From Thermofilum pendens Hrk 5 (lineage in GTDB: Archaea; Thermoproteota; Thermoprotei; Thermofilales; Thermofilaceae): a DNA stretch of 32,000 nucleotides. Made by a program: the position numbers and the translations under genes. The notes under the pieces were generated by a model that saw only the letters and a program-made list of their open reading frames with translations, made no database searches and was not told where the DNA came from. Shown here piece by piece: positions 18,010 to 25,955 of the stretch (positions within the stretch are counted from its first letter, which is position 1; each line of letters begins with the position of its first letter). The DNA is taken from the NCBI RefSeq assembly GCF_000015225.1, contig NC_008698.1:1749890-1781889 (forward strand). The letters are read 5' to 3'.

Positions 18010-18933
18010 ATGTCAGGCCTTAAAGAAGTCCTTCGGAGAAGGCTCCCGCTCCTGCTGATAGTAGCCGTAGTCATTCTCGGAGCCGTCCTGGTGTTGCTCC
18101 GCCAGGGAGCAACGCAGACCAGGCTGACACCCTATATCGCGCAGATAACGATAAAGGGAACCATAGACTACGCCTCCAGCTCTATATTCGGCGCCACGCC
18201 GGGCGTAGAGGAGTACATAAAGCTCGTAAAGCAGGCCGAGGAGGACCCGATGGCCAAAGCCGTACTACTCGTCTTCGACAGCCCCGGGGGAACAGTTACA
18301 GCCTCGGACGAGCTCTACCAGGCGGTCAAAGAGCTTTCCCAGAAGAAGGTTGTAGTCTCCTACGCAAAGGGGCTACTCGCGAGCGGGGCGTACATGGCTG
18401 CCCTCCCGTCCCGCGCGATACTCGCGAGCCCTACCAGCGAAGTGGGCTCCGTCGGCGTGATAGTGACTGTCCTTAACGTCGGGAACCTCCTCGGAAAGAT
18501 AGGAGTCACCGTGTATACCTTCAAGTCGGGAGAGCTGAAGGACGTAGGATCCCCCTACAGGCCGATGACCGAGGAGGACGCCAAGGTCTTGGAGGAGATG
18601 GTGAACTACTACTTCGGGCTGTTCAAGGGCAGGGTTCTCGAACACAGGGGCAACGTGAGCAGCGAGGTTTTCAGCGGGAGACCTTTCACGCCCGACAAGG
18701 CGTTGCAGGCTGGCCTGATAGACAAGGTGTGCACCTACCAGGAGGCTGTTAACTACACGCGGGCGCTAGCCAACCTACCGGAGACCGCTGAGGTAGTCGA
18801 GCTCAAGCCGAGGACCCCAACGCTCCTCGACCTGCTACTCGGAACTTACTCCGGCGCCGGCAACAGGCTCGTCATACCGAGCATCGTGGTACTCTACATG
18901 TGGCCGCCGCCTGTCGCCGTGATCCTTCCTTGA
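18010..18933 (+). CDS. sppA: Signal peptide peptidase SppA (S49 family, short type)
   Basis: N-terminal TM anchor, FDSPGG, nucleophile region LLASGAYMAA, and lysine region SGELKDVGSP. Confidence 0.85.
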   Translation: MSGLKEVLRRRLPLLLIVAVVILGAVLVLLRQGATQTRLTPYIAQITIKGTIDYASSSIFGATPGVEEYIKLVKQAEEDPMAKAVLLVFDSPGGTVTASDELYQAVKELSQKKVVVSYAKGLLASGAYMAALPSRAILASPTSEVGSVGVIVTVLNVGNLLGKIGVTVYTFKSGELKDVGSPYRPMTEEDAKVLEEMVNYYFGLFKGRVLEHRGNVSSEVFSGRPFTPDKALQAGLIDKVCTYQEAVNYTRALANLPETAEVVELKPRTPTLLDLLLGTYSGAGNRLVIPSIVVLYMWPPPVAVILP

Positions 18934-20336
18934 AGCTCGGGCATAGGTCCGTCCGCCCTGAAGTAGGCCCAGGCGGAGGAGGCGAGGAACAGGAGGGACA
19001 GGAGGACTTGCACCGAGTTCTGCATCACTATACCCACAGCCAGAGACGCGGAGAACCACGCGGATAGGTAAACCGGAAGAGCCTCCTTTTTCTCGGCGGC
19101 CTCCTTCTTTCCCTTCGGCGTGACCTCGAAGGAATAGCTAAGCCCGAGCAACCCCCTTACGGACGCGAGTGCGAGGACGGGGACAAGCGTAGCGATTATA
19201 GCCGCGAATCTACCCAGGTTCACCAGGCTCTCCTTTAAGCTCGACCCTACCCTGACGAGCTTCGAGTAGAGGTAGAGATACAGCGGTACGACGACAACGA
19301 ACGGTGCAAGCGCGAGGGACAAAGCCGTGAGGAGACCCCCTAAGCCCACCCGCGGCTCGAGCAACCCTAGAAACGGTAGCACTGCGACGGCTAGCGCCGG
19401 CGGAATAGTCAGCGCCGGTAGGGACATGTAGGCCAGCATTTCTAGCCGCACGTGTAGCGGTAGCCCTCCGTGCTTGAGTACGCGTAGAAACGACCTCCTA
19501 AGGACGTCGCTCGTGCCGTACGACCAGCGCCTCTGCTGTTTCTTGAACGCTCCTAGGGTCGACGGCACCAGGACTTTCAAGCGTGAACCGCTGAGCAGGC
19601 GTGTCCTGTACCCTCCCAGCGCGAGCTTCACCCCCATCCATATGTCGTCCTGCACGATGCCGTCGCCCCACCCGCCGACGTCCAGGACTACCTTCCGAGG
19701 GTAAACCGTCCCAGAGCCGAGCGGAAATACGTAAAAGCCAGCCCTCGATCTCAGCTCGTAGAGGACCTCCGTCCCTAGATCCGTGAAGAACTTGACGGCC
19801 TCCGCGAGCCTTGTCCTGTAGGCGTAGTACCCCTCCCACGGGACAACCAGCGCGCCGTCGCTTAGCGTGTTGCGGCAGAGCTTCTCGGCAACGCACGGAT
19901 CCACCACGGCGTCCGCATCGAGTATCATTAGGTGGCTACTCGAGGAGGAGGCAAAGTAGTCGTCTAGGGCGCCAGTCCTCCCGCCTCTGCGCTCCCTCCT
20001 CCGCCACACGGCTACTCCCGGCGCGTCACTCACGAGCCGGCTCAGCGCCTCCACGTACTCCGCGCTGTCGTCCGAGAGTATCGTTAGACGCGCGAAGCAG
20101 GGGGCGCGCGAAAAGGCTTCGAAGTCCCTCTTGGACACGCTTGCCACGAGGTCCAGCGGCTCGGAGTATACGGGCATGACTACTTCCAGCGACTGGGGTG
20201 CCTCGCCCCCCACCGGTGGGGCGTCCTCCCTCCTCAGGTAAGCCGCCGCGAAGATAACCAGCTCGTAGAGTAGCAAGAGGAGTAGGGGTACGGCGATGAG
20301 TAGGAGGACTATGATGCTTGCAAGCAGGGAGACCAC
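18894..20336 (-). CDS. Integral-membrane processive family-2 glycosyltransferase (cellulose-synthase-like, QxxRW type)
   Basis: VVMPVYSEP, ILSDDS, ILDADAVV (DxD), VQDDIWMG (TED-like), FKKQQRRWSYG (QxxRW). N-terminal TM segment(s) and about 5 C-terminal TM segments. Confidence 0.85.
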   Translation of the reverse strand: MVSLLASIIVLLLIAVPLLLLLLYELVIFAAAYLRREDAPPVGGEAPQSLEVVMPVYSEPLDLVASVSKRDFEAFSRAPCFARLTILSDDSAEYVEALSRLVSDAPGVAVWRRRERRGGRTGALDDYFASSSSSHLMILDADAVVDPCVAEKLCRNTLSDGALVVPWEGYYAYRTRLAEAVKFFTDLGTEVLYELRSRAGFYVFPLGSGTVYPRKVVLDVGGWGDGIVQDDIWMGVKLALGGYRTRLLSGSRLKVLVPSTLGAFKKQQRRWSYGTSDVLRRSFLRVLKHGGLPLHVRLEMLAYMSLPALTIPPALAVAVLPFLGLLEPRVGLGGLLTALSLALAPFVVVVPLYLYLYSKLVRVGSSLKESLVNLGRFAAIIATLVPVLALASVRGLLGLSYSFEVTPKGKKEAAEKKEALPVYLSAWFSASLAVGIVMQNSVQVLLSLLFLASSAWAYFRADGPMPELQGRITATGGGHM

Positions 20337-20337
20337 C

Positions 20338-20997
20338 CTAGTCCTCCGTGTCCTCCGGTAGGTTCTTCTCTCTTTCCAAGCCCGGTTGCCCAGTCCTCAC
20401 GCGTACGAGCGCGTCGAGGTATTCGCCGAAGAACGCCCAAGCCGCAAACGCTCCCACCAGGAAGCCTATCCCTATGGCTATTCCAAGGGCCAACGCCAGT
20501 TTTATCTCGTTGCTCAGAGAGGCGAGGTCGACTATGAGCAGTGTTACGACGAGCAGGCTCATCATGACGAAGAACCTCTCCGTCTTCCTCTCCATACGCA
20601 TCGACTTCACTAGCGCGTCTATCACGACGAACGAGAACAGCGAGAGAACAGCCACGCTTCCAATCCTGGATATGTAGGATAGTGCCTCGCGGTAGGCCTG
20701 AGAGTACTCCGGCACGAAGACTCTGACCACGAGCGCGGCAGAGGAGGTTAAGATACCCGCGTCCGCGACGAGCACGAGTAGCGTGCTCAGAGGTATCCTG
20801 GTGCCCTCGGGGAGGCTTTTCCTCAAGTACTCGTCCAGCCTGGCGACGCTCACCAGCCACCTTATGCTCTTATTGACGAGCTTTACTACGAGGAGCGTAA
20901 CGAAAAGTATGAGCGTAGCCAGGCCTACCTTGGGTGCCAGCGCTGCTATCTCGATTACGACCTGCTGGAAGAGCTGTACCACGTCCCACTCGGGCAT
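20338..20997 (-). CDS. Small polytopic membrane protein, resembling the conserved TM-helix region found N-terminal to MscS-type channels
   Basis: 219 aa with 4-5 hydrophobic segments and an acidic tail (EKNLPEDTED). Start lies 2 nt after the upstream stop. Its stop lies 1 nt before the GT2 start. Confidence 0.7.
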   Translation of the reverse strand: MPEWDVVQLFQQVVIEIAALAPKVGLATLILFVTLLVVKLVNKSIRWLVSVARLDEYLRKSLPEGTRIPLSTLLVLVADAGILTSSAALVVRVFVPEYSQAYREALSYISRIGSVAVLSLFSFVVIDALVKSMRMERKTERFFVMMSLLVVTLLIVDLASLSNEIKLALALGIAIGIGFLVGAFAAWAFFGEYLDALVRVRTGQPGLEREKNLPEDTED

Positions 20998-20999
20998 TT

Positions 21000-22328
21000 T
21001 CAGCCACCGATAAAGAGTGCCTCGAACCTATAAATAGTGTACAGCAAGAGGAGGAGGGCTACCAGCGCCAGGGTCTCGATAAACGTCCTAACGAACTCCC
21101 TGGAGGCCTGCACCGTGAAGACATAGCCCACCAAGCTTATCGAGTATATCATTCTGCTAAACTCGTAGGCCTTTCTCTCAGGTACTATCGCCGTCTCCGG
21201 AATCGCCACGAGAGCCAAGACTGTTGCGACCAGCTTCAAGGCCGCGGCTAGGAGGAGCCCGAGGAAGGGGCTTCTCGCCAGCGTTAGCGCAACGAGCGAT
21301 GCTACGAGAAGGCCCAGGTAGTTCCCCGCGGTCATGTAGGCGCTTGCGCGCACGCGCCCCATGTGCGAGTTTATCTCAGCGAAGATCTGCATTGCGAGGA
21401 GGTTTGCAGCCATGAACGTTAACGACGTGAAAAACGATAGCCCTACGTGCATGCCCGGCAGGGGTAGAAACGGTATCACGGCTGTTAAGACGGTGTTGGC
21501 TACGAGCCCGGCTACATATGCTTTGTAGCCCTTTATCACCAGGGAGCCGATCACTCCGCCGATGTTACCTGTAATGCTGAGTGCGAGGCTCACGTAGAGA
21601 GGGGCTCCCATGTCCTTGAGGAGGGGTGCCCAGGAGAGACCTACCAGGTTGCTCCCTGCCAGCATGAAGGTCAGGACGAGGAATGCCTGGCTACCGCGTA
21701 TCAGAACCTCCTCGGAGGCCCTTCCTCCCGTTTCCACTATCTGCTTAGGGTAGGCGGGTACGAGTAGCAACGCGACCGAGCTACCCAGGCCAACTACGAA
21801 TGCCGTCACATAGGAGACGTAGTAGCTCTGAGGCGCCGGTAGAACCGCGGAGACCGCGGTCATGTAGATGGCGCCTAGAAGGGAAGCCGCCGTGCCCGCC
21901 GCGGACCTCCACACAGAGACCTTCATAACTTCCCCCACGTCGCCGAAGTACGAGTATATCAGGGATCCCAGGAATATGCTGACAACGGCGGAGACAGCGT
22001 TCCCAAGCATGTACAGGAACGCTACCACTATGGGCTTCTCCAGGAAGAAGGGCAACGTGAGCCATACGAACCTCTCGGCTATGTGGGTGGCCAGGGACAG
22101 GACCTTGAACCTCCGCGTAGCCTCCTCAGGGTACTTGTAGAGACCCCACGATAAGGCCGCCCCGCTAATGGACGTCGGCAGGAAGACTAGTGCCATGTTT
22201 TCAAGGCTGTAGCCACTGTAAGCCATCATCGGGACGAACAGGCCGCGGGTAACCGCGACGTAGAAGCCTCCGAGAAGCGCTTCTAGGACTAGCAGAACTC
22301 TCGCTAAAGCCTTCTCGGTGTTCGACAC
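21000..22328 (-). CDS. Polytopic membrane protein (about 12 TM, MFS-like topology), candidate exporter
   Basis: 442 aa, hydrophobic throughout. GTG start 14 nt after the galU-like stop, preceded by GAGAGGGGA. Confidence 0.75.
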   Translation of the reverse strand: MSNTEKALARVLLVLEALLGGFYVAVTRGLFVPMMAYSGYSLENMALVFLPTSISGAALSWGLYKYPEEATRRFKVLSLATHIAERFVWLTLPFFLEKPIVVAFLYMLGNAVSAVVSIFLGSLIYSYFGDVGEVMKVSVWRSAAGTAASLLGAIYMTAVSAVLPAPQSYYVSYVTAFVVGLGSSVALLLVPAYPKQIVETGGRASEEVLIRGSQAFLVLTFMLAGSNLVGLSWAPLLKDMGAPLYVSLALSITGNIGGVIGSLVIKGYKAYVAGLVANTVLTAVIPFLPLPGMHVGLSFFTSLTFMAANLLAMQIFAEINSHMGRVRASAYMTAGNYLGLLVASLVALTLARSPFLGLLLAAALKLVATVLALVAIPETAIVPERKAYEFSRMIYSISLVGYVFTVQASREFVRTFIETLALVALLLLLYTIYRFEALFIGG

Positions 22329-22342
22329 GCGGATCCCCTCTC

Positions 22343-23242
22343 TCAGGGCTTGCCGGCGCCGATCCCCAGCTCGCTTAGAATCTCCGACAGCTTGTCCGCG
22401 CCCAACGCGTGTTTAAGTGAAACTAGGGCGGCTCTCAGGAAGGTTTCCCAGGTTCCAATGTCGATCCAGTCCGCTTCAGCCTCGTACGCGTAGAACTGGT
22501 AGCCACTCCTGATGAGTATCTGGATGGAGTCCGTCACCTCGAGCTCTCCTCTAGGGCTTGGCGTCGTCTGCTCTATGGCCCTGAATATCTCCGGGGGGAA
22601 GATGTAGAGCGACGTGTTCGCGAGGTACGAGAGGGGTTCGCGCGGCTTCTCGACTATGCCTTCAACCCTGTAGATAGACGTGTCCACCCTGCTTCCGATG
22701 ACTACCCCGTACCTCCGCGGATCCCTAACCCTCTTCACTGCGAGCATGGGGGACCTCAGCCTATCGAAGTATTCCAGCAACCTCCTCGGTATGTTCTCTC
22801 CAAGGAAAAGGTTGTCGGTAGCCGCCGCCATGAAGTAGTCATCCCCGACGAAGCCTTTAGCCATGTACACCGCGTGCCCAGTCCCGCGGGGCACCGGCTG
22901 ATTCACCCACGTGATGTAGGACTTCTCCACCTTCTCGTAGAAGTCCCTCAGCAACTCCGCGTAGTCGTTCTTGCCAGTTTTCTCCAGGTACTCTACGAAG
23001 TCCCAGTCCGGCGTGAAGTGATCCTCGATCACCCTCTTCCCGCGTCCAACGACGAAGCAAAACTCCCTTATCCCGGCTTCGTAGAACTGCTCGAAGACGG
23101 CCTGAATAACGGGCTTGAGGTACACCGAGTTGTTAACGCCGAAGAATACAGGGAGCATCTCTTTGGGCATCTCCTTGCTATACGGAACCAGTCGCGTACC
23201 CAGACCCGCCGCTAGAAGTACTCCTTTGGACAGCGAAGGCAT
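22343..23242 (-). CDS. galU: UTP-glucose-1-phosphate uridylyltransferase-like sugar nucleotidyltransferase
   Basis: LLAAGLGTRLVPYSKEMPKEMLPV N-terminal signature, VVGRGKRVIEDHF, and PRGTGHAV. Confidence 0.8.
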   Translation of the reverse strand: MPSLSKGVLLAAGLGTRLVPYSKEMPKEMLPVFFGVNNSVYLKPVIQAVFEQFYEAGIREFCFVVGRGKRVIEDHFTPDWDFVEYLEKTGKNDYAELLRDFYEKVEKSYITWVNQPVPRGTGHAVYMAKGFVGDDYFMAAATDNLFLGENIPRRLLEYFDRLRSPMLAVKRVRDPRRYGVVIGSRVDTSIYRVEGIVEKPREPLSYLANTSLYIFPPEIFRAIEQTTPSPRGELEVTDSIQILIRSGYQFYAYEAEADWIDIGTWETFLRAALVSLKHALGADKLSEILSELGIGAGKP

Positions 23243-23317
23243 AGATCCTCACGAGCACTATAAATCGGAAAATATAAACATCTAACACTCACAAGCAGAG
23301 CAACGCGCTACGAAAAG

Positions 23318-23327
23318 CATTTTTACC
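23318..23327 (+). promoter_or_regulatory. TATA-like box for the SOR gene
   Basis: CATTTTTACC centred about 32 nt upstream of the ATG at 23355. Confidence 0.45.
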
Positions 23328-23354
23328 TTGGCGAACCAATAGAATTCGATAAGC

Positions 23355-23732
23355 ATGCCTAAGAAATTCGGAGACCTAATATATACTCCGGAGACAGCGA
23401 GCGGAGAAGCCATTTCGAAAGTTGAGACGCACACACCCAGGATAGAGGCGCCGGACTCCGTGAAAGCCGGGGAACCCTTCTACGTAAAGATATACGTTGG
23501 ACCCCACCCGAACACCCTGCAACACTCTATTCGGTGGATCGAGGTATACTTCGAGGAGGAAGGGAGGCCGTTCAACCCGGTAATGCTGTCGCGAATACAC
23601 CTAGAGCCTGAGCTCGTAGAACCCGAAGTCACGCTGAAGCTGGTACTGAAGAAAAGCGGAGTGATCTACGCGTTGGAGTACTGCAACCTGCACGGAGTCT
23701 GGGAGGGGAGGAAGCAGGTTAAAGTTCAGTAA
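23355..23732 (+). CDS. sor: 1Fe superoxide reductase (neelaredoxin type) with E-T-H instead of E-K-H
   Basis: VETHTPRIE, HPNTLQHSIRWIEVYF and YALEYCNLHGVWE align with Fe ligands of the Pyrococcus-type SOR (GEKHVPVIE, HPNTTEHHIRYIELYF, YALSYCNIHGLWE, from memory). Confidence 0.9.
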   Translation: MPKKFGDLIYTPETASGEAISKVETHTPRIEAPDSVKAGEPFYVKIYVGPHPNTLQHSIRWIEVYFEEEGRPFNPVMLSRIHLEPELVEPEVTLKLVLKKSGVIYALEYCNLHGVWEGRKQVKVQ

Positions 23733-23765
23733 AAAAAGATAAATTTTCGAAAACATTTTTTATTC

Positions 23766-25058
23766 GTGTTAACGAGAAAGCAGAGAGTAGCGTACGGCTT
23801 TGCACGTTTTGGATCCACAATATTCATGGGGCTCTACGACTTTGCGAGCTTCTACATCTACTGGCAGGTCTTCCGGCTCGACCCCTTGCTGTCCGGCTAC
23901 ATGGGCGCGATAGGTAAGATAACCATTATGGTTGCAAGCCTGCTGGTAGGGTATCTCAGCGACTCCATATGGACCCGGTGGGGGCGGCGTAAGCCCTTCA
24001 TAGCTACTGGGGCGCCCCTCCTGGCTTTCTCAGGGTTCCTTCACTTCACCCCTATATATTTCCTTCAGGGAGCTACACAGGAAGCCTTGTTCCTGTGGGG
24101 CGCCGCTACAAGCTCCATGTTCCACTTCTTCTACGCGTGGCTTTTGACACCCTTCCAGGCGTGGCTACCGGAGATATCCGAGCCCTCCGAGAGGATAGAC
24201 ATTTCGATGCTACAGAACGTGGCTAATATACTCGGGAACATCGTCAGCACGGTTACGGGGTTCCTCGCAAAGATGCTGGTAGCACGTGGCCTTCTAATGC
24301 CGCTAGTAGGTGCGTACGCTTTGGTTCTCGTAGCGCTCTTTACGCCACCGGTAGTCCTGCTACCTGTTGAGAGGAGAGCGGAGCCCACGAGACCGTCCCT
24401 CAAAGACCTTCTAACCGTGTTCAGGTACAGGGAGTACATGAAGTGGATGGCTGTTCGAGGACTGATGTCCTCCAGCGTTCAAATGCTTACAATAACGATA
24501 ATCGCGTACATAGAGAAGGTGATCGGGGTAGAACACTCGCTTGCCTCGGCATCGTTCGGCGTTATACTCGTCGTCTTCGTAGCCGGCGCGTTCCCGCTAT
24601 GGGGTAGGCTGGGCAAGAGGGCGGGAAAGGGGAGGGCGCTCACGCTTTCAATGACGTTGCTGGGAGCTACGCTACTCATGACCCCGCTCCCCCACTTCGT
24701 CGACCCCGGTGTTTTCAGGGTGCTCCTAGGCTACGTGCTGGTAGCCCTCGGCGCTGTCGCCGTCTCAGCGTACGTCCTATTCCCCTACGCAGTGCTAGCT
24801 GACCTCGCGCACTGGTACGAGGTGCAGACCGGGGAAAAGCGGGCGGGTCTCTTCACGGGGTTCGAGGGGATACCTATCAACGTGTTCGAGTCGCTGGCCT
24901 ACCTAGTCACGGGGTTCCTAATGAGCTTGCCGCAGGTGCCTGGCTCCGAGTACACCTACGGGCTGATCCTGTGGGGACCCGTAGCTTCGCTGTTCACACT
25001 GGTAGCTCTCGCCATCCTAAGGAGAACGAACGTAGACCCCTTCCTCGCCAAGAAGTAG
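23766..25058 (+). CDS. GPH/MFS-family cation-coupled transporter
   Basis: 12-TM profile. SDSIWTRWGRRKPFI loop motif is typical of glycoside-pentoside-hexuronide-type carriers. Confidence 0.8.
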   Translation: MLTRKQRVAYGFARFGSTIFMGLYDFASFYIYWQVFRLDPLLSGYMGAIGKITIMVASLLVGYLSDSIWTRWGRRKPFIATGAPLLAFSGFLHFTPIYFLQGATQEALFLWGAATSSMFHFFYAWLLTPFQAWLPEISEPSERIDISMLQNVANILGNIVSTVTGFLAKMLVARGLLMPLVGAYALVLVALFTPPVVLLPVERRAEPTRPSLKDLLTVFRYREYMKWMAVRGLMSSSVQMLTITIIAYIEKVIGVEHSLASASFGVILVVFVAGAFPLWGRLGKRAGKGRALTLSMTLLGATLLMTPLPHFVDPGVFRVLLGYVLVALGAVAVSAYVLFPYAVLADLAHWYEVQTGEKRAGLFTGFEGIPINVFESLAYLVTGFLMSLPQVPGSEYTYGLILWGPVASLFTLVALAILRRTNVDPFLAKK

Positions 25059-25955
25059 TTGCACGCGAAAAAAGGTTTTTATCTTGACAACAATTACCGG
25101 TCTTCCGTGCTGGGAGAGGTATTCGCGCTTGTTGCGGCGCTGTCGTTTTCCGGGGCAGCCATCTTCTACAGAGCCGGCGTTAGGGGCTCGCAGGTAAACC
25201 CGATAGTTCTCAGTGGGTTACGCGGAATGTTCGCACTCGCGCTTCTATTGGTCGTAGGCTTTTTCTACCGCGTAGACTTCTCGAAGCCACCCGTATTCTA
25301 CCTGGCGGTCTTCCTGTCGATGCTCGGCTCGTTCATCCTCGGAGACTCCTCCTTCCTCTACGGTCTCCAGCGCGCCCCGCTTGGGGTCGTGTACCCAGTA
25401 GCGTACACGTTCTCGGTCTTCACAGCCCTGTTCTCGCACTTCATCCTGGGGGAAGAGCTGACGCTCAGAGACGCCGTGTCCTCGCTACTCATAGTGCTTG
25501 GAGTCGCTCTCGTGTACTCTGAAAACTTCTCGCTTGGAAAGCAAGCGCTCGTTGGCGCACTCGCGGGTCTCTCCGCGAGCGTCTCCTGGGGCGCCGGAGC
25601 AACGCTGATGGGGCTAGCATTGAGGTGGGGTAACGCTGTCGAGGTAAACATCTCGAGGCTATCCATGCTCGTAATCGCAACTCTCCCGCTGATACTGAAG
25701 AACTCCTCCGAGGTCTTCAGGCAGGTACGGGTCCACCTGCTCGCCCTCGGAGGGATCCTAGGGATAGGCGTGGGGCCACTTCTCTTCATGAATTCCATAA
25801 GCTTTATAGGGGCTTCCAGGTCGAGCATTTTCATCTCCTCGACCCCCGTCCTGACGGTGCTCCTCTCCAGGATCTTCCTAGGCGAAAAAACCGGTGGGAA
25901 ACTTTTGCTCGGAACTCTCGCCGTGAGCGCCGGGCTAGCTTTGCAGAGCTTGTGA
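25059..25955 (+). CDS. EamA/DMT-superfamily transporter (10 TM); true start probably GTG at 25107
   Basis: Two 5-TM EamA-like halves. The first 16 codons of the track ORF are hydrophilic and contain a promoter-like box. Confidence 0.8.
   Translation: MHAKKGFYLDNNYRSSVLGEVFALVAALSFSGAAIFYRAGVRGSQVNPIVLSGLRGMFALALLLVVGFFYRVDFSKPPVFYLAVFLSMLGSFILGDSSFLYGLQRAPLGVVYPVAYTFSVFTALFSHFILGEELTLRDAVSSLLIVLGVALVYSENFSLGKQALVGALAGLSASVSWGAGATLMGLALRWGNAVEVNISRLSMLVIATLPLILKNSSEVFRQVRVHLLALGGILGIGVGPLLFMNSISFIGASRSSIFISSTPVLTVLLSRIFLGEKTGGKLLLGTLAVSAGLALQSL
25074..25083 (+). promoter_or_regulatory. Internal TATA-like box indicating a downstream start (GTG 25107) for the EamA gene
   Basis: GGTTTTTATC centred about 28 nt upstream of the GTG at 25107. 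Confidence 0.45.

Follow-up and report, generated by a model that had tools for sequence, protein, structure and literature searches.

We analysed a window of 32,000 nucleotides from Thermofilum pendens Hrk 5 (contig NC_008698.1, positions 1,749,890 to 1,781,889), in which four consecutive minus-strand genes encode, in 5' to 3' order, a GalU-type enzyme, a 442-aa membrane protein, a 219-aa membrane protein and a family 2 glycosyltransferase (GT2). The explanation that we favour, tentatively and with a confidence that stays a little short of even, is that these genes constitute a mosaic operon specific to Thermofilaceae and composed of three independent modules, in which the GalU-type enzyme would feed UDP-glucose to the GT2, a putative β-glucosyltransferase. 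What is new here is a minimal archaeal cellulose-synthase-like GT2 accompanied by a predicted UDP-glucose supply gene, together with an undescribed conserved membrane pair formed by the two middle genes (the 442/219 pair).

The 480-aa product of the last gene matches PF13632 (Glyco_trans_2_3) in Pfam with an E-value of 3e-35. As indicated by its structural model and by hydropathy, the protein contains, from the N to the C terminus, one transmembrane (TM) helix, the GT-A domain, an interface helix with QQRRW, two TM helices, a third interface-type helix, the gating loop F403-E-V-T-P-K408 and the two last TM helices. We aligned 19 family members, which are 23–52% identical to the window protein. 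The catalytic motifs S88-D89-D90, D140xD142, Q229-D230-D231 and Q267-Q-x-R-W271 are kept throughout this alignment, as are P55/E59/P60, R120-T-G, W167, G207-S-G-T210 and T406-P-K408; all of these positions are invariant except R270, which is conserved at ≥90%, and the window protein reads Q267-Q-R-R-W271. The last ~15–19 residues overrun most homologs, and residues 469–480 have a predicted local distance difference test score (pLDDT) below 50.

Searched against the Protein Data Bank (PDB), the family profile matches the bacterial cellulose synthase BcsA (E 2e-15) and PcManGT (E 5.5e-10). Specifically, profile positions 202–435 align to BcsA residues 304–526, a span that includes the catalytic core, QxxRW, the subsequent TM helices and the gating loop, and the family consensus 'yeVTPK' falls on 'FAVTAK' of BcsA. 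The FxVTxK motif of the gating loop touches the uracil and the diphosphate of UDP-glucose and is essential in BcsA and CesA8 (PMC10592267), while hyaluronan and chitin synthases carry WGTR/KG in its place (PMC10592267; PMC6821405). The AlphaFold2 (AF2) model of the GT2 has a pLDDT of 92.2 and a predicted TM-score (pTM) of 0.90. The top Foldseek matches of this model are BcsA (E 1e-15, TM-score 0.65 normalised to the query), hyaluronan synthase (HAS), PcManGT (TM-score 0.71 normalised to the target, E 9e-11), plant CesA and the cyclic glucan synthase Cgs. Together, sequence and predicted fold identify the protein as a membrane-embedded cellulose-synthase-like GT2 that has the catalytic and gating motifs characteristic of BcsA/CesA/CrdS-type synthases.

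An initial annotation of this DNA had already recognised a synthase-type GT2 from its D, DxD, (T)ED-like and QQRRW set, and the profile and fold matches to BcsA, which continue past QxxRW, bear this out. The grouping with dolichol-phosphate (Dol-P) sugar synthases that would have spoken against it did not appear: the profile matches to DPMS, GtrB and ArnC are confined to positions ~41–162, the generic N-terminal half of the GT-A domain, and the Foldseek top 50 contains no Dol-P-sugar synthase. We rejected a dolichol- or undecaprenol-phosphate sugar synthase as the identity of the protein on account of these restricted matches and of the presence of both QQRRW and FxVTPK. Literature searches returned nothing relevant on Thermofilum and cellulose synthase, and no characterised cellulose-synthase-type enzyme from Thermoproteota.

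The first gene probably encodes a UTP-glucose-1-phosphate uridylyltransferase, predicted to convert UTP and glucose-1-phosphate to UDP-glucose. Its 299-aa product has the NTP_transferase fold (PF00483, 3.7e-34) and carries the signature GLGTRLVPYSKEMPKEMLP, which fits the GxGTRxLPxTK...PKEMLP pattern of GalU. The top NCBIfam model is TIGR01099 galU, at 179.7 bits and thus under the equivalog cut-off of 326.8. In the PDB sequence search, all 14 of the 14 best matches are UTP-glucose-1-phosphate uridylyltransferases, aligned over residues 4–281 with E-values of 3e-42 to 1e-23, and matches to RmlA are limited to the C-terminal half. The GalU-like assignment of the initial annotation is therefore upheld over the full length of the protein.

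Comparative genomics indicates that the 442/219 pair is an autonomous two-gene membrane module conserved across Thermoproteota. A search with the 442 family, taking one genome per species, gave 30 loci, with homologs in 33 loci across Thermoproteota overall. These loci come from Desulfurococcaceae, Zestosphaera, Sulfolobales metagenome-assembled genomes (MAGs), a Thermoproteaceae MAG, MAGs labelled Nitrososphaeria and others, with further contexts in Fervidicoccaceae and on Korarchaeota-labelled contigs. Sufficient downstream sequence was available for 28 informative loci, and in 26 of them a 219 homolog lies directly downstream of the 442 homolog on the same strand, as determined by a hidden Markov model (HMM) survey coupled with neighbour clustering. 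The spacer between the two has a median of 2 nt (range −14 to +54). Only at Thermofilum/Infirmifilum loci is the pair flanked by GalU-like and GT2 genes; it stands without GalU or GT2 in 22 of the 26 adjacency-keeping loci, which come from other lineages. Its annotated neighbours there, namely rhomboid, metallophosphoesterase, EamA, aldo-keto reductase, PALP-PadR, enolase-superfamily and ribosomal L10e genes depending on the lineage, have no shared theme and no glycan theme.

Two lineages depart from this layout. In one Thermoproteota MAG lineage (L042:8352-9559 and L044:8352-9917), which accounts for the exception to the adjacency, the place of the 219 gene behind the 442 homolog is taken by an unrelated 522-aa open reading frame (ORF), which is rich in lysine and isoleucine, has a weak LAGLIDADG match and may be a mobile-element insertion. 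An intein-interrupted 219 homolog was considered for this ORF and rejected, as it gave no HMM match even with filters off. In Fervidicoccaceae (L014:9930-11075), a 382-aa ORF with weak metallopeptidase-like matches (eCIS_core, YgjP-like) overlaps the end of the 219 homolog and may be a lineage-specific third gene of the module.

The GT2 likewise occurs alone in most contexts. The combined GT2 survey covers 87 loci, 80 of which were contributed by the metagenome scan. The 442-aa gene adjoins the GT2 gene in 13 of the 87, and in every one of these the GT2 is ≥43% identical to the window protein; near the ~70 more distant GT2 loci (26–40% identity) we found no GalU, 442-aa or 219-aa gene, and five GT2 contexts at 29–37% identity are all devoid of the three genes. 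Since the GT2 and the pair are each partnerless elsewhere, the operon is best read as a lineage-specific mosaic of GalU, the 442/219 pair and the GT2. Conservation of the four-gene order, which the initial annotation had proposed to check among relatives, is restricted to loci of the Thermofilum/Infirmifilum type, and beyond the family level the order is largely absent, as seen from both the 22 loci of other lineages that have the pair alone and the ~70 distant GT2 loci. Even in Thermofilum and Infirmifilum the shared order is weak evidence for a joint function, because the flanking genes are syntenic there too.

Among named organisms, Thermofilum (53–62% identity) and Infirmifilum (44–55%) have the nearest relatives of both the GT2 and the 442-aa protein; the two genera belong to the Thermofilaceae, order Thermofilales, according to a taxonomy look-up. 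In addition, the window is collinear with Thermofilum contigs from a class II tRNA synthetase gene (PF00152) to an MFS_1 gene, in the order PF00152, EamA, MFS_2, superoxide reductase, the four genes, SppA, pyridine-nucleotide oxidoreductase and MFS_1. The relatives and the collinearity place the host in the Thermofilaceae, so that the Ignicoccus-like host once supposed for this DNA was wrong and the speculation about two membranes and osmoregulated periplasmic glucans (OPG) loses its basis.

The hydropathy profile of the 442-aa protein displays 12 hydrophobic segments in a 6+6 arrangement with a central loop, followed by a C-terminal extension and a 13th segment. The description of this protein as '12-TM' thus holds for the 12 segments and falls short of the whole: residues 376–442 (21000–21203) form a strongly conserved extension, IPETAVVPERRAYEYSR...GYTFTVQASREF, leading into the 13th segment, which exceeds a standard 12-TM transporter. 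No Pfam or NCBIfam model matches the protein at threshold. Sub-threshold matches to MFS_1, the model of the major facilitator superfamily (MFS), appear in 8 of 19 family members (13–30 bits against 33.4) and in independent distant members, one of which covers model positions 2–343 of 347. The family profile found no MFS protein among all PDB sequences at E ≤ 10, and no match to LtaA; hhalign against local MFS_1 and MFS_2 alignments returned a probability of 0.3%, a weak test given shallow templates with an effective number of sequences (Neff) of 1.3–1.8. When the two halves of the 442 family were aligned to each other, 116 columns came into register at E 0.1, and internal duplication is not significant in either the 442 or the 219 family (E ~0.1). 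The 442-aa protein is possibly a very divergent MFS-type transporter, as suggested by the sub-threshold matches.

The AF2 model of the 219-aa protein (pLDDT 75) contains six helices, the five long ones corresponding to the five hydrophobic segments of the hydropathy profile. Foldseek gave no match to the PDB at E < 1, and the family profile recovered only noise from the PDB sequences. PF05552, the 'MscS conserved TM helix', scores 17.2 bits in the window protein against a cut-off of 22, and it is found in 9 of 11 family members with a best E-value of 1.1e-5. A profile search of 1.84 billion representative proteins retrieved ~45 full-length clusters of the 219 family; next beyond these came proteins of 400–611 aa, in each of which the N-terminal region found 3–6 matches, with E-values of 4e-8 and weaker. 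The region that resembles the PF05552 repeat unit spans residues ~6–87. At the family level, then, sequence comparison relates the N-terminus of the 219-aa protein to PF05552, in line with the MscS-N-terminal-like helix noted earlier. No match to the MscS pore/β-domain (PF00924) was found by Pfam in the protein or its family, and the protein ends after five helices. The link to membrane tension that had been proposed for it finds no support, because the MscS pore and β-domain are missing. The 400–611-aa outgroup proteins (P0097–P0133) consist of 4–5 tandem PF05552 repeats only, with no MscS channel domain in Pfam.

The coordinates of the four genes and of the other features are given in the table. 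On direct reading, the four ORFs match the initial annotation exactly, as do the spacers of 14, 2 and 1 nt between them in 5' to 3' order. Each internal gene is preceded on the minus strand by a Shine-Dalgarno (SD)-like purine run, namely GAGGGG (22335–22340) for the 442-aa gene, GGTGG (21004–21008) for the 219-aa gene and GGAGGA (20342–20347) for the GT2 gene, and the distance from run to start codon is 5–6 nt in all three cases. The sole sizeable non-coding stretch around the operon is the intergenic region upstream of the GalU-type gene, which is shared with the divergent superoxide-reductase gene. Direct reading of its minus strand reveals a TATA-like element TTTATATT at 23271–23278, ~33 nt 5' of the ATG of the GalU-type gene, besides TTTATA at 23259–23264 and GAGGA at 23246–23250 just ahead of the ATG. 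The element TTTATATT is a plausible archaeal TATA box. A second TTTATA occurs on the minus strand at 21029–21034 within the 442-aa coding region, ~34 nt 5' of the 219-aa ATG; since this spacing resembles that of the upstream TATA-like box, an internal promoter for the 219-aa and GT2 genes is possible. From this layout, the four genes probably form one co-transcribed unit, which may be translationally coupled and served by one promoter.

Table. Positions of the operon, its upstream region and selected genes at other GT2 loci. Positions of the first six features refer to the window; the others refer to the respective locus.
Feature	Position	Strand	Details	Source
GalU-type gene	22343–23242	minus	299 aa, ATG start	ORF list
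442-aa membrane protein gene	21000–22328	minus	GTG start	ORF list
219-aa membrane protein gene	20338–20997	minus	ATG start	ORF list
GT2 gene	18894–20336	minus	480 aa, GTG start	ORF list
Divergent promoter/intergenic region	23243–23354		112 bp; upstream of the GalU-type and superoxide-reductase genes	
Superoxide-reductase gene	23355–23732	plus	Desulfoferrodoxin match 8e-33	Pfam
Radical SAM gene near GT2	L005:4546-6114	minus		
Radical SAM gene near GT2	L007:3260-4858	plus		
Radical SAM gene near GT2	L011:3737-5263	plus		
Radical SAM genes near GT2, 12 more	among L057–L116			
DUF4147/MOFRL gene upstream of GT2	L009:5209-6651			
DUF4147/MOFRL gene upstream of GT2	L011:5645-6994			
DUF4147/MOFRL genes upstream of GT2, 11 more	e.g. 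L084, L087, L101, L106			

Around the operon, the GT2 gene and the convergent gene of SppA (S49 peptidase) overlap by 40 nt at their 3' ends (18894–18933). The divergent plus-strand genes at 23355–25955 encode superoxide reductase, a GPH-family MFS_2 sugar-type symporter and an EamA transporter; the superoxide-reductase gene is syntenic in Thermofilum and Infirmifilum, and the two transporter genes are syntenic in Thermofilum only. The other scanned ORFs of the window are housekeeping genes with no glycan theme in the Pfam scan, and Rfam and tRNA scans detected no RNA families or tRNAs in the window.

The analysis itself establishes the gene layout, homologies, motifs, fold and phyletic pattern, whereas co-transcription, UDP-glucose as donor, a β-glucan product and complex formation by the pair belong to the mechanism that we propose. 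The four genes would be transcribed from the TATA-like promoter 5' of the GalU-type gene, with the internal genes translated from their own SD-like sites. The GalU-type enzyme would make UDP-glucose from UTP and glucose-1-phosphate, and this putative donor would then bind to the cytoplasmic GT-A domain of the GT2, where the metal-binding DxD motif, the FxVTPK loop and R270 (in QQRRW) would hold it. In this inverting GT2 the catalytic base would be D231, located on the QDD finger helix, and glucose would be joined in β-linkage to an acceptor that stacks on W271, where the C-terminal helix bundle opens. Most likely the acceptor is a growing β-glucan chain, short or long, which would be extended at its end and passed into or through the membrane; we favour it because both the motifs and the best matches in sequence and fold point to enzymes that elongate glucans. 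The 442/219 pair would be co-expressed without being a dedicated synthase subunit, a dedicated role being disfavoured by its phyletic independence. It would most likely form a heteromeric transporter complex, and in Thermofilaceae it could export or flip the GT2 product.

Several observations weigh against this explanation. The KAG and QxPH/Q motifs are fully conserved across bacterial β-glucan synthases (PMC6821405), and the corresponding positions of the window GT2 hold R120-T-G and x-P166-W167, so that both motifs are altered, by substitutions that are either conservative or of a different kind. BcsA has four N-terminal TM helices, two of them lining its channel, and the window enzyme has one. 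Its one N-terminal and ~4 C-terminal TM helices plus interface helices compare with six helices in the BcsA channel, and a complete channel for a polymer is not evident from so few N-terminal helices. The same minimal fold is shared with the crenarchaeal GT2 PcManGT, a mannosyltransferase by its PDB title, which is not known to secrete a polymer. For the 442-aa protein, all MFS matches are sub-threshold and the profile tests were negative. The tight packing of the pair between GalU and GT2 across two genera could reflect a real functional link.

Moreover, the neighbours of distant GT2 relatives hint at a lipid substrate. In 15 of the 87 loci, an orthologous radical S-adenosylmethionine (SAM) protein of 508–536 aa is encoded no more than three genes away from the GT2, and three representatives are 32–60% identical to one another. 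Three arrangements are seen: the radical SAM gene is divergent from the GT2 gene with two small ORFs in between, or lies on the same strand directly upstream, or is separated from it by a small ORF and a MOFRL gene. The best family matches of the protein are weak B12-binding/radical SAM models in NCBIfam, and its public name is only 'radical SAM protein'. A tetraether synthase (Tes) was rejected as its identity, since it gave no match to 7TOL. The class of B12-binding radical SAM enzymes includes GrsA and GrsB, the ring synthases of glycerol dialkyl glycerol tetraether (GDGT) lipids (PMC13459092). In the reviews that we consulted, the archaeal genes for glycolipid head groups, and those that move such sugars outward, are unassigned. 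At class level only, the radical SAM linkage is thus a hint towards a lipid acceptor for the GT2. Because of this linkage and the reduced TM scaffold, a lipid acceptor stays in play beside the favoured glucan chain. In 13 loci, a DUF4147/MOFRL (glycerate-kinase-type) gene lies directly upstream of the GT2 gene on the same strand; this adjacency may be lineage synteny or a functional link.

A pathway of glycolipid synthesis and flipping is an explanation that we regard as unlikely. The GT2 would glucosylate archaeol, GDGT or polyprenyl phosphate on the cytoplasmic face, and the MFS-like protein with its small partner would flip the product outward. Such a role fits the logic of a gene set made of UDP-glucose supply, lipid glycosyltransferase and MFS flippase (PMC8866510), and it is consistent with the minimal TM bundle, with weak Pfam matches to GT21 (ceramide glucosyltransferase) in several GT2 family members, with the recurrent linkage to a protein of the same class as the Grs lipid ring synthases, and with the gap in head-group gene assignments. 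However, the pair and the GT2 come together only in Thermofilaceae and are apart elsewhere, although a synthase and its dedicated flippase would be expected to travel together; the 442 family has no detectable similarity to LtaA or any solved MFS protein; the set of FxVTxK, QxxRW and finger helix is typical of enzymes that elongate glucan chains; and the radical SAM protein is known at class level only and is not Tes. In a bolder form, which we hold to be quite unlikely, the operon would, in Thermofilaceae, be the missing archaeal head-group pathway itself, with GalU as the source of UDP-glucose, a GT2 acting on archaeol or GDGT, in keeping with the Grs-class radical SAM genes beside its relatives elsewhere, and the pair as a new two-subunit lipid flippase that brings the sugar to the outer membrane face.

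The model of the initial annotation, in which all four proteins form one machine that polymerises and exports a β-glucan, OPG-like or for the surface, with the small protein coupled to tension, appears improbable and ranks behind both lipid proposals. It draws on the very short spacers and the order kept in Thermofilum and Infirmifilum, on the PF05552-like helix of the small protein, and on the idea that helices of the partner proteins could in principle complete the channel in place of the missing N-terminal helices of BcsA. Its layout and enzyme assignments stand; its four-part unity is unlikely, since the pair is autonomous in at least 22 loci, the GT2 is partnerless in ~70, and the four-gene order is absent outside Thermofilaceae. 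A Thermofilaceae host also shows no sign of the Ignicoccus-type intermembrane compartment, and the small protein has no MscS channel domain, its distant relatives being PF05552-only repeat proteins. The OPG-like product fares no better: the MdoH model, whose cut-off is 550 bits, matches the GT2 over only part of the N-terminal region and at a negligible 16.4 bits, and there is no OpgG-like gene among the scanned window ORFs. Least probable of all, in our judgement, is a step in N-glycan or lipid-linked oligosaccharide synthesis, where the GT2, anchored in the membrane like PcManGT, would modify a dolichol-linked glycan non-processively as part of a housekeeping glycosylation unit. The strong structural and profile matches to PcManGT point that way, as does the wide distribution of the GT2 family with one copy per fetched locus. 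The sequence and fold matches to BcsA are nevertheless stronger and extend through the gating loop and C-terminal helices, the Dol-P-type matches stay within the generic half of the GT-A domain, and the Pfam scan detected no AglB or other N-glycosylation genes in the window.

Known families make the enzymology of the operon predictable, and the four genes are not conserved as a system. Even so, both the GT2 family and the pair offer testable candidates for unassigned steps in the archaeal envelope. The operon and the linkage of GT2 to radical SAM genes supply concrete candidates for archaeal lipid glycosylation and outward transfer. The pair is widely conserved in hot-spring Thermoproteota, and its tight coupling predicts a heteromeric transporter. 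For annotation, the locus demonstrates that tight packing in one family does not equal a conserved four-part system.

Comparison with known systems places the pair and the gene set as a whole. The N-terminal region of the 219 family fits the repeat unit of PF05552 repeat proteins and large MscS-family channels, and in Foldseek the 219-aa model resembles the TM regions of AtMSL10 and MscK, though weakly and without significance. It differs from MscS channels in the absence of PF00924, in having five helices with one clear repeat-like unit, and in its constant pairing with a 12/13-TM protein, whose gene it follows as an obligate partner. The glycolipid anchor of Staphylococcus aureus is made by GtaB (UDP-glucose pyrophosphorylase), YpfP (glycolipid synthase) and LtaA (MFS flippase) (PMC8866510). 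The operon can be read in the same way, as UDP-glucose supply, a membrane-associated glucosyltransferase and a 12-TM MFS-like protein, which makes this system the nearest functional analogue of the gene set, although the relevant proteins are not homologous. YpfP belongs to a non-GT2 glycosyltransferase family; the 442-aa protein has no detectable similarity to LtaA, the PF05552-like partner is extra, and the linkage is confined to one archaeal family.

For the GT2, both a processive and a minimal relative are at hand. PcManGT from Pyrobaculum calidifontis (PDB 6YV7-9) is also a crenarchaeal membrane-anchored GT2 with a minimal cellulose-synthase-like fold; it has ~350 aa and binds GDP-mannose, whereas the window GT2 is 130 aa longer and carries a UDP-type FxVTPK, the two being ~18% identical. 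BcsA differs in its length of ~730–890 aa against 480, in its four N-terminal TM helices, in its PilZ/c-di-GMP domain and in its BcsB partner, neither of which has a counterpart here; identity is ~16–18%, and the window enzyme has xPW for QxPH, RTG for KAG and QDD for TED. What it shares with BcsA, plant CesA, the curdlan synthase CrdS and the mixed-linkage glucan synthase BgsA is a GT-A domain bearing D, DxD and a finger helix of the ED type, with QxxRW on the interface helix, an FxVTxK loop that follows the third interface-type helix and precedes the last two TM helices, alignments that run from the catalytic core to the C-terminal TM region, and, next to the window gene, a putative UDP-glucose supply gene. 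The family thus appears to combine the full apparatus for handling UDP-glucose, gating loop included, with a pared-down membrane scaffold, and the window GT2 provides a compact test case of how far the BcsA architecture can be reduced while still supporting chain elongation and passage through the membrane.

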